From an uncultured Phycisphaerales bacterium (lineage in GTDB: Bacteria > Planctomycetota > Phycisphaerae > Tepidisphaerales > Tepidisphaeraceae), in NCBI GenBank assembly GCA_963758525.1, contig CAVWVQ010000003.1, positions 3,616,001 to 3,680,000 of the forward strand: 64,000 bases of DNA. The letters are read 5' to 3'. A program made the translations under genes and the position numbers. Shown here piece after piece: positions 55,039-58,000 of the stretch (within the stretch, counting starts at the first letter, position 1; each line of letters opens with the position of its first letter). The notes under the pieces are model-generated. The model searched no databases. It had not been told where the DNA came from and saw only the letters and a program-made list of their open reading frames with translations.

Positions 55039-58000
55039 GGTCAAGCTCTTAAGGGTGTATGGTGGATGTCTTGGCATCGAGAGGCGACGAAAGACGTGGA
55101 AGCCTGCGATAAGCTCCGGGAAGCTGGCAATCAAGCATTGATCCGGAGATTTCTGAATGCGGAAACGCGGCTCGGGTAACACCGAGTCACCTGCGGCTGA
55201 ATGTATAGGCCGTATGGAGCGAACCTGGGGAACTGAAACATCTAAGTACCCAGAGGAAAAGAAAGAGACATCGATTCCGTAAGTAGCGGCGAGCGAAAGC
55301 GGAAATAGCCCAAACCAGGATTCGTCCTGGGGTTGCGGAAGCACTGAGGGGTTACAAAACCAATCCTAGCTGAAGACTTCAGGAATGTTGTCCCATAGAG
55401 GGTGATAGGCCCGTAAGCGACAGGATCAGGTCCCCGTTAATATGTGCTCTCCAGAGTAGCACGGAGCTCGTGGAACTCCGTGTGAAGCTGCCCGGCCCAC
55501 CGGGCAAGGCTAAATACTCCTCGATGACCGATAGTGAACAAGTAGGGCGATTGAACGATGAAAAGTACAGCTACTAGCTGAGTGAAAAGTACCTGAAACC
55601 ATACACTTACAAGCGGTCGGAGCTCTATGCCCGCAAGGGAAAAGAGTGACGGCGTACCTTTTGCATAATGGACCGGCGAGTGCATGTTTGCGGCAAGGCT
55701 AAGGTGTCAAGCACCGGAGCCGTAGCGAAAGCGAGTCTTAAGATGGCGCTAAGTCGCGGGCATGCGGCCCGAAACCCCGTGATCTACCCATGAGCAGGTT
55801 GAATGTCCCGTAAAAGGGACAGGAGGACCGAAGCCGTGAACGTTGAAAAGTTCTGGCATGACTTGTGGGGAGGAGTGAAAGTCTAATCAAACGGGGAGAT
55901 ATCTGGTTCTCTTCGAAATGCCTTTAGGGGCAGCCTCGAGAAACTACTCTATGGGGGTAGAGCTACTGAAAGGAGACGTGGGGCTACCCGCCTACACGCT
56001 CCTACCAAACTCCGAATACCATAGAGACTATCTCGGGAGTGAGTCCGCGAGGGATAATCTTCGCGGTCAAAAGGGAAACAACCCTGATCGTCTGTTAAGG
56101 TCCCAAAATCCAGCTTAGTTCGTTAGGAAGTTATTGTTCTGAGACAGCCAGGATGTTGGCTTAGAAGCAGCCACCATTTAAAAAGTGCGTAATAGCTTAC
56201 TGGTCGAGAACAGTAGCGCCGTAAATGATCGGGAATAAGCAGGATACCGAAACAGCGGGAGCGAAAGCTCGGTAGAAGAGCGCTGCACGCCGCGTCGAAG
56301 CCATACCGTAAGGAGTGGTGGAGCGCGTGCAGGTGAGAATGCCGGTATGAGTAACGATAATGCAGGTGAAAATCCTGCACGCCGAAAGCCTAAGGTTTCC
56401 TGGGGAAGGTAAATCCGCCCAGGGTTAGTCGGCACCTAAGACGAGGCCGAAAGGCGTAGCCGATGGACGGCAGGTTAATATTCCTGCACTGGCTGTGAAG
56501 GTTGAACCTCTGCATGTGTCTTTCCAAGGCAGATCCACCGATTAGTCGTGGTGGTTGGGAGCGTCGTAAGGCGTTAGCTCGAGGCCGCTTTGTTGCTGAA
56601 GTCTGTGGAGGAGGGACCGAGAAAAGTGCAGAGGCGACGACACGGTCAACCGTACTAAAACTGACACAGGTAGGCGAGGAGAGTATCCTCAGGCGCTCGA
56701 GAGAACTGCGGTTAAGGAACTAGGCAATCTAACCCCGTAACTTAGGGAGAAGGGGTCCCCTCGCGCAAGCAAGGGCGCAGGAATCAGCCTGGGCGACTGT
56801 TTATCAAAAACACAGCTCTGTGCCAACTCGCAAGAGGATGTATACAGAGTGACGCCTGCTCGGTGCCGGAATGTTAAGGAAGTTGGTCAGGGGTTCGCCC
56901 CGAAGCTAGCAACCGAAGCACCGGTAAACGGCGGCCGTAACTATGACGGTCCTAAGGTTAACGCACTTCGCTAGCCTTAGTAAAACTTGGCTATTTGCTG
57001 GAAAGTCTGAGTATCCCTCACTACTCGCTTCGCTCGTGATTTGAAATCCCAAATTTGAGATTTGGAATTGCGGATCTGAGATCTCAATTTGAGATCTGAG
57101 ATTCACCGTGAAGCAGTGACAACGTGCAGGGTGCAGGCAATCAGCAGGAAAGGCCGGACGAAGCATTCGCTTCATTCCGGAATCCTCAGAGACTACACGC
57201 CAGGGATCTGGATCAATGCCAGATCAAGATATAGTCCGAGCTGCATGGCGACATGCAGAGGCCGGCAGAAATGCCCGGTCCTTCTTTTGAGATCTCAAAT
57301 CTCAAATTTGAGATCTCAAATGGCGAACATCGTTCGCCGAGGAAGTAACAACGAATCTGAGCGAAGTTCCTTGTCGGGTAAGTTCCGACGTGCATGAACG
57401 GCGTAACGACTTGGGCGCTGTCTCGACCGCAGACTCGGTGAAATTGAAGTGGCGGTGAAGATACCGTCTACGCGCAGCAAGACGGAAAGACCCCATGGAC
57501 CTTTACTGCAACCTGGTACTGACGCCGGGTGTGGACTGCGTAGGATAGGTGGGAGGCGTTGATCCCTCGGTTCTGGCCGAGGGGGAGCCAACGGTGAAAT
57601 ACCACCCTGTTTGCATTCGTCGTCTCACCCTGACCCATGAATCTGGGCAGGGAACAGTGCTAGGCGGGCAGTTTGACTGGGGCGGTCTCCTCCAAAAGAG
57701 TAACGGAGGAGTGCAAAGGCAAGCTCAGAACGGTTGGCAATCGTTCGTCGAGCGTAAAGGTAGAAGCTTGCTTGACTGCGAGTGCTACGGCACAAGCAGA
57801 GATGAAAGTCGGCCTTAGTGATCCTGTGGTAGCGTGTGGAAGCGCCATAGCTCAACGGATAAAAGGTACCCTGGGGATAACAGGCTGATCGCCTCCGAGC
57901 GTCCATAGCGGCGAGGCGGTTTGGCACCTCGATGTCGGCCCATCGCATCCTGGGGCTGAAGGCGGTCCCAAGGGTTTGGCTGTTCGCCAATTAAAGCGGT

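Follow-up and report, generated by a model that had tools for sequence, protein, structure and literature searches.

Degenerate heptanucleotide repeats occupy the P6b stem of the tRNA-Leu(UAA) group I intron of Nostoc and Calothrix, where Class I (TDNGATT) and Class II (NNTGAGT) are distinguished (PMC4476775, PMC3488679) and the origin of the classes is called unknown (PMC4476775), and variable heptamers lie upstream of the S23p/PF05635 open reading frame (ORF) in the helix-45 intervening sequence (IVS) found in Coxiella burnetii (PMC4990558); PF05635 ORFs are also found in rRNA insertions of Candidate Phyla Radiation bacteria (PMC11270868). In Ca. Thiomargarita nelsonii the dsrA group I intron carries a MITE (miniature inverted-repeat transposable element), an element occurring genome-wide, in its P9 region (PMC4853749), and L1931 group I introns have been classed as IC1-like without P2 (PMC1995217) and the archaeal large-subunit (LSU)/1931 introns as IB4 (PMC6125680). 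All of these papers are cited from excerpts. The present analysis concerns 64,000 nucleotides (the window; positions 3,616,001 to 3,680,000 of contig CAVWVQ010000003.1, assembly GCA_963758525.1) from an uncultured Phycisphaerales bacterium of the Tepidisphaeraceae, here G000, in whose 23S rRNA gene a 401-nt, ORF-less group I intron carries two tracts of a heptamer of the class ATYTSAR. Both tracts are probably copies of this chromosomal repeat, likely the gene-less arms of cassettes encoding PF05635 four-helix-bundle proteins, that entered the P5b and P9.2 loops once the intron was in place. A preliminary description of the window had proposed that a chromosomal repeat colonised the ribozyme after its acquisition; the link to cassette arms was missed.

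The intron (56959..57359, + strand; last base G; RF00028, 65.3 bits with a gathering threshold of 50) interrupts the 23S rRNA gene (55039..58330, + strand; Rfam RF02541, 2558.6 bits), a single-copy gene unlinked to the 16S gene, and the 6.47-Mb assembly holds one L1931 site and one 16S gene. We take the insertion site to be L1931 by E. coli numbering, in keeping with a second intron of G012 that ends 14 nt upstream. Similarity of the 23S gene to labelled records points to a Phycisphaerae-like planctomycete as the host. The exon halves were found contiguous in 15 of 36 family genomes (including G004, which is unpublished and was used only as a negative row), which sets the intron bounds at 56959-57359 and means that removal of the intron restores conserved rRNA. 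Tract 1 (57039..57100, + strand) is a P5b extension between element P (56994-57004) and element Q (57139-57148), on a host stem at about 57022-57118, and consists of nine ATYTSAR-type units (ATTTGAA, ATCCCAA, ATTTGAG, ATTTGGA, ATTGCGG, ATCTGAG, ATCTCA, ATTTGAG and ATCTGAG) closed by a stem of GTGA (57036-57039) and TCAC (57103-57106); its predicted fold is a pair of adjacent hairpins that share a stem, rather than a single hairpin. Tract 2 (57286..57321, + strand) has five units, follows P9 and P9.1 as a P9.2 extension with a predicted 15-bp hairpin, and contains two perfect TTTGAGATCTCAAA palindromes of 14 bp (57286-57299 and 57307-57320). The letters of both tracts are as first described, and complementary heptamer arms form a stem in each predicted fold. 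Exact AT[CT]T[GC]A[AG] units number 10 in the intron, whereas 20,000 two-base block shuffles averaged 0.39 and never held more than 5. On reverse complementation the ATYTSAR class yields a rotation of itself, so that any head-to-head junction of two units makes a palindrome; the TTTGAGATCTCAAA 14-mer, of which there are no copies beyond those two in the assembly, was considered as a distinct site and rejected, the palindrome being a unit junction.

The intron has the group I core of P3, P4, P6, P7 and P8 with P, Q, R and S elements, and its helices P1, P3, P4, P5, P7, P8, P9 and P10 are fully paired. P1 (56952..56980) has a U-G at the 5′ splice site and 9/9 standard pairs, the P10 strand UUCGCU in the P1 loop (56967-56972) pairs at 6/6 positions with the 3′ exon AGCGAA (57360-57365), and pairing is complete in P3 (56986-56991/57199-57204), P4 (56996-57000/57142-57146), P5 (57005-57009/57134-57138), P7 (57191-57195/57232-57236), P8 (57207-57223) and the P9 hairpin (57241..57258), which has a GNRA (GCGA) loop and is free of heptamer tracts; all lie on the + strand, and the catalytic core spans 56986..57236. 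The tracts therefore spare the core and are peripheral, as had been proposed. In an alignment of 8 homologs P3, P4 and P7 are 100% paired, and 91.4% of all cells are paired, a figure lowered by the mis-setting of the P9.1 register and of the first P6a pair, with 11 pairs showing two-sided change. The intron has a short P6 and no homing-endonuclease (LAGLIDADG) ORF, and the predicted structure suggests that it would still self-splice. Of 24 public RNA runs listed, none contained half of the search words, and four were compared with the locus; the joint that skips from 56958 to 57360 is present in these runs, but intron-less bacteria make it too, the organism may be missing from the runs, one of them is probably DNA, and the tract bins are almost uncovered, so that the reads speak neither for nor against splicing.

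Like the Nostoc P6b repeats, as far as the excerpts describe them, these tracts are degenerate, self-pairing 7-nt repeats of variable copy number in a peripheral group I intron stem, and one class is replaced by another independently and repeatedly between lineages, as in the L1931 introns; TGAGATT, a rotation of the ATYTSAR unit, agrees with the consensus of Class I (tract 1 has 2 forward matches). They differ in lying in the 23S rRNA (L1931) of Planctomycetota, in the loops P5b and P9.2 (P1 and P6 in relatives), in comprising four or more classes, and in that the classes are tied to the arms of PF05635 cassettes. Class I or II arrays served as four-helix-bundle arms at 0 of 10 cyanobacterial plasmid loci (of 23 matches), where other heptamer classes were found; chromosomes were unsearched. 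With the Coxiella-type IVS, as excerpted, the tracts share a heptamer arm, a hairpin insertion in the rRNA precursor and a variable unit number, and IVSs with a PF05635 ORF are present in the relatives G009, G203 and G401. The window arms differ in that no PF05635 ORF lies between them, they sit inside a group I intron and not in a mature rRNA helix, and their removal would be by intron splicing. Published L1931 introns (PMC1995217, PMC6125680, PMC11270868), in the portions available, have the same site, core sequence and lack of P2 as the window intron, which differs in having P5b/P9.2 tracts and no LAGLIDADG ORF (common there, not obligatory); the passages of these three papers that contain the word 'repeat' do not deal with heptamer tracts. 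The Thiomargarita MITE, too, is a hairpin repeat that occurs throughout its genome and sits in a group I intron at P9, but by its excerpted description it has direct and inverted terminal repeats, whereas the tandem 7-mer of the window is variable and has no fixed ends. Searches of the open-access literature turned up no paper that ties these repeats to four-helix-bundle genes or that describes such tracts in planctomycete introns, and no such passage was found in PMC4679880.

A genome-wide count of the motif, the check proposed in the preliminary description, gave 37 merged ATYTSAR tracts of three or more exact units in G000 and 0 in 3 shuffles. All but one of these (36/37) lie outside genes, as roughly called. 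The tracts range from 3 to 24 units with flanks that differ between sites, and neither fixed element ends nor a target-site duplication was seen, as judged by reading without a formal duplication search, so that the fixed length with conserved ends, or target-site duplication, of a MITE or a repetitive extragenic palindromic (REP) element is lacking. The ATYTSAR triple unit is present in 46 of 121 family genomes and absent from 75, and both same-genus genomes have 0 tracts.

To place the tracts among orthologous introns, L1931 introns were gathered from the class, from genome contigs (at least 120 loci, 79 complete) and from metagenomes (47 loci, 43 complete), loci without a complete intron (41/120 and 4/47) being left out, and a period-7 tract counted as clear if it scored 18 or more out of 28, a level that all 60 shuffles stayed below. 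Eight of 110 distinct complete introns are tract-bearing (the window intron, L190, L198, L081, L052 and those of G061, G203 and G401) and the remaining 102 have no clear tract. All eight are planctomycete and are spread over four classes, three of them forming one lineage; they fall among the 58 introns without a long ORF (8/58), with none among the 52 long, mostly endonuclease-bearing introns. L190 and L198, whose exons are 99.6-100% (3′) and 98.6-99.4% (5′) identical to those of the window, have tracts at the same two places, with 4 units in P5b versus 9 and a different P9.2, whereas the introns of G401, G012, L189, L196 and L185 have no P5b tract. The Pirellulaceae intron L081 has three ATYTSAR insertions (in P5b, P6 and a P9 extension) that are missing from its sisters L107 and L130, in which short TTCGAA-like loop seeds are found. 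Three further classes occur in the introns of G061 (P6), G203 (P1, P6 and P9) and G401 (P6). The tracts are thus insertions relative to sister introns, and their unit number differs between near-identical hosts.

An intron-core tree, in which 52 of 111 introns could be placed (59 lacking the core anchors were left out) and bootstrap values are not fully settled, joined the window intron, L190 and L198 in one clade (96/91) and grouped L081 with the tract-free L107 and L130 (100/99), apart from the window clade. Since L081 and L052 belong to another branch of the core tree and the sisters of L081 are tract-free, the class they share with the window is read as convergence. Alignment to homologs supported lineage-restricted insertion, with the qualification that these two distant planctomycete introns bear the same class, which in form goes part of the way towards what the preliminary description had named as refuting its idea. 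L052, labelled Myxococcales, was considered as a cross-phylum tract and rejected: its 23S sequence groups with planctomycetes (three short exons were left out of the 23S exon tree) and in its genome ATYTSAR occurs only in the intron, so that the contig is probably misbinned. The contig of L078, labelled Spirochaetaceae, likewise has a 23S sequence that groups with planctomycetes and is probably misbinned. With 37 tracts in the genome and the class missing from most orthologous introns, the entry of a chromosomal repeat into the ribozyme after its acquisition is upheld; the long residence in this lineage that had been deduced from it is not supported, as both same-genus genomes are without tracts, the L1931 site of G002 is empty, and the near-identical hosts differ in P5b. 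Because the loop tracts are convergent and fast-changing, they should not be used for dating residence or inferring kinship.

Arrival by homing from a donor whose intron already bore the tracts, without colonisation in this lineage, is very unlikely in our estimation. L1931 introns do move horizontally (PMC1995217, as excerpted), the intron is patchy in the family (15/36 genomes with an empty site), and the same class recurs in distant planctomycete introns; yet the window intron has no endonuclease ORF, tract-bearing introns are not one clade, tracts are found in none of the 52 long introns, and in the host the leader, the spacer and 33 other sites bear the class. An L1931 intron with a LAGLIDADG-like ORF in the P6 position is present in G231. 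In G012 (L014:1-818; C95:88-207) two introns are separated by 14 nt; the first contains a LAGLIDADG-like reading frame and ends 14 nt upstream of the L1931 intron, which fits the L1917/L1931 spacing in the excerpt of PMC1995217, and the genome has an empty L1931 site as well, on another contig.

Several further observations were made on these introns. CGCTTCG-type short palindromic stems in the window (57023-57036 and 57159-57171), which form the base of P5b and the P6 hairpin, are shared by L190 and L198 only. In the G203 intron (L043:1252-1706) the arms of P1 and P6 are rich in purines and that of P9 in pyrimidines. Longer palindromic REP-like inserts occur in P5b, P6 or P9 of L110 (labelled Acidobacteriaceae) and L184, which indicates that these loops accept other genomic repeats too, and a partial L1931 intron, L139, has a further heptamer class (CAATTTG) in its P9 extension. 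A period-9 test on the introns gave no convincing signal, and 9-mer-like runs were seen by eye in the P9 extensions of G401 and G012.

The class in an intron mostly matches the class of its host genome. Forward/reverse ATYTSAR triple-unit matches number 75/80 in G000 and 48/48 in G698, the host of L081, and 1/0 and 0/0 in the tract-free sisters of the latter, G699 and G700. The class of the G061 intron has 83/97 matches in G061, 1/4 in G401 and 0 in 12 others, and that of the G203 intron has 5/7 matches in G203 (6/12 in its 23S locus) and 0-1 elsewhere. In three other tract-bearing hosts the intron class is also found outside the intron, abundantly in two.

The class also flanks PF05635 genes in relatives. 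In a named subfamily of these, P0001, at least 3 ATYTSAR units flank the gene on both sides at 6 of 9 loci and on one side at 8 of 9, and five further loci have ATYTSAR on at least one side by eye. The repeat also runs in frame inside the ORF of this subfamily, as an LKSQISNL-type motif (e.g. LKSQISNLKS) in 88 of 121 homologs, these being ranked by similarity to a protein that bears the motif; the in-frame repeat was seen at L232:1471-1968 (G009) and also in L222, L245, L249 and L250. Among the 121 family genomes, all nine P0001 gene carriers have at least 10 tract matches, compared with 15 of 112 non-carriers. In G203 and G401 the 23S gene that carries the intron also contains, about 700 nt upstream of it, an IVS with a PF05635 ORF, and the arms of this IVS are of the same class as the tracts of the genome's own intron. 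More widely, period-7 arms bracket the gene on both sides at 14 of 30 TIGR02436 loci from five relatives, and G000 has 9 TIGR02436 matches (8 places) with complementary heptamer arms visible at most places. The visible arms of these and of the 4 GxxExxY genes of G000 are other 7-mer or 9-mer classes; 9-base repeat arms flank the GxxExxY (TIGR04256) genes at C3:2087927, C3:275448, C3:1855542 and C5:57911. The 23S locus of G009 (L263) combines a helix-45 IVS containing a PF05635 ORF with another heptamer tract, which lies some 280 nt inside the 23S gene, and with a different class in the spacer between 23S and 5S.

Ordinary heptamer simple repeats could also have arisen in place, by polymerase slippage and hairpin-templated copying without any cassette, an origin we regard as unlikely. 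An excess of heptamer repeats is seen in many bacteria and slippage set by polymerase geometry has been put forward (PMC4692102, as excerpted), unit numbers are quick to change, the tract-free sisters L107 and L130 offer TTCGAA-like seeds, and the cognate gene is missing from most repeat-rich genomes. Such an origin would, however, have to give rise to one degenerate consensus in Phycisphaerae-like introns and, separately, in those of Pirellulaceae, and to be confined to some genomes, a triple unit being absent from 75 of 121; that consensus equals the arms of one gene subfamily, and in two genomes the intron class is that of the arms of the IVS in the same 23S gene.

A number of observations weigh against descent of the tracts from cassette arms. 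The cognate subfamily gene was not found in G000 (best match 35% identity; assembly 90.9% complete) and is lacking in 15 of 24 repeat-rich family genomes, so that the gene is not needed to hold tracts. The association of gene and repeat is partly circular, because the arms of the cassette itself count as matches, and related genomes are not independent. A four-helix-bundle ORF was found in 0 of 106 distinct L1931 introns, leaving the 'full' intermediate unseen, and a search of viral contigs for the cognate gene gave one 16-residue match only. In G401 the pattern of its class matches the intron only, and ATYTSAR is genome-wide in G012 (27/21) and G203 (16/16), yet is not in their introns. An isolated tract-tract duplex is predicted at -37.2 kcal/mol, compared with -18.8 plus -18.4 kcal/mol for the separate hairpins; pairing of tract 1 with tract 2 was nevertheless disfavoured by a nested folding model, which cannot see pseudoknots and which expects 20.4 and 14.2 pairs inside the tracts and 0.0 between them. 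What a neutral model explains least well is the enrichment of tracts in pre-rRNA together with the presence of other classes at the same spacer position.

This enrichment bears on a further alternative, in which the tracts are a functional RNA signal that recruits RNase III or a four-helix-bundle protein, or pairs P5b with P9.2, and so aids processing, splicing or turnover. Five of the 37 tracts of G000 lie in pre-rRNA, each with a predicted stem, where a rough expectation, with the non-coding size assumed, is near 0.1-0.3: one in the long predicted hairpin of the 16S leader (G000:C3:29148-29174), one capping a predicted hairpin of the 23S leader (54846..54866, + strand), the two in the intron, and one capping a predicted hairpin of the spacer between the 23S gene and the 5S gene (58365..58392, + strand). 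At this spacer position other heptamer classes were found in 3 of 19 loci examined (G009, G011 and G019), and a weaker signal was seen in G034; in G203 a predicted pairing joins the P6 tract to the P9 tract across the ribozyme core, and in the Coxiella IVS the cut made by RNase III falls inside the heptamer arm (PMC4990558, as excerpted). A functional signal is nonetheless distinctly unlikely, given the 102 of 110 orthologous introns without a clear tract, the variability of position (P1, P5b, P6, P9.2), class and length, the tract-free state of the closest sisters, and the spacers of most relatives, which are without tracts.

For the seeding of cassette arms that we favour, the following course is envisaged. 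The intron would have lost its endonuclease, or never had one in this lineage, and as ATYTSAR arms spread in the chromosome, short self-complementary arms would have been taken up by its variable loops, either by insertion of a cassette followed by loss of its ORF or by copying of a short arm from another chromosomal tract; slippage in 7-base steps would then have altered the unit numbers. A tract at a hairpin tip would refold on itself and leave P3, P4 and P7 free, and would be tolerated, probably with little harm, because a class that is self-complementary up to rotation folds locally. The sharing of the class between intron and genome, its place beside PF05635 genes in relatives, the insertions relative to sister introns and the changes of unit number are observed; the seeding step, this tolerance or neutrality and the splicing of the intron are what we infer. 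A broader idea, to which we assign a low probability, is that the cassettes are a non-transposase mobile system that writes subfamily-specific heptamer arms at the tips of hairpins and has its hotspot in strongly transcribed genes for structured RNA, namely pre-rRNA leaders, spacers and introns; the in-frame arm of the ATYTSAR-subfamily gene is possibly a template or a specificity mark.

Elsewhere, the 5S rRNA gene follows the 23S gene (58544..58651, + strand; RF00001, 74.2 bits), and a long 8-base-period array between genes (window:62712-63200), whose predicted translation is a repeated SSLRPFVP, represents another repeat class in G000. Arrays of tRNA genes lie at C3:3600074-3600529 (5 genes) and C3:3764011-3766477 (about 15 genes).

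What the analysis adds is a comparison of orthologous introns matched to their hosts, together with a protein and a repeat that can be named as a pair, the P0001 subfamily and ATYTSAR. The orthologous introns amount to a natural experiment, in which a given loop is empty in some and in others contains one of several classes, mostly that of the host itself, and the match between intron and IVS class in two genomes ties solo heptamer hairpins to PF05635 cassettes. The origin of bacterial heptamer repeats, and of the intron classes of Nostoc used as lichen markers, has been called unknown in the literature (for Nostoc in PMC4476775, as excerpted), and the 401-nt ribozyme and the P0001/ATYTSAR pair are concrete objects for direct tests. 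Should the cassettes indeed be such a mobile system, it would account for heptamer repeats that so far lack an explanation in many bacteria, among them the P6b classes of Nostoc, and the L1931 introns would be a record of the past cassettes of each host.

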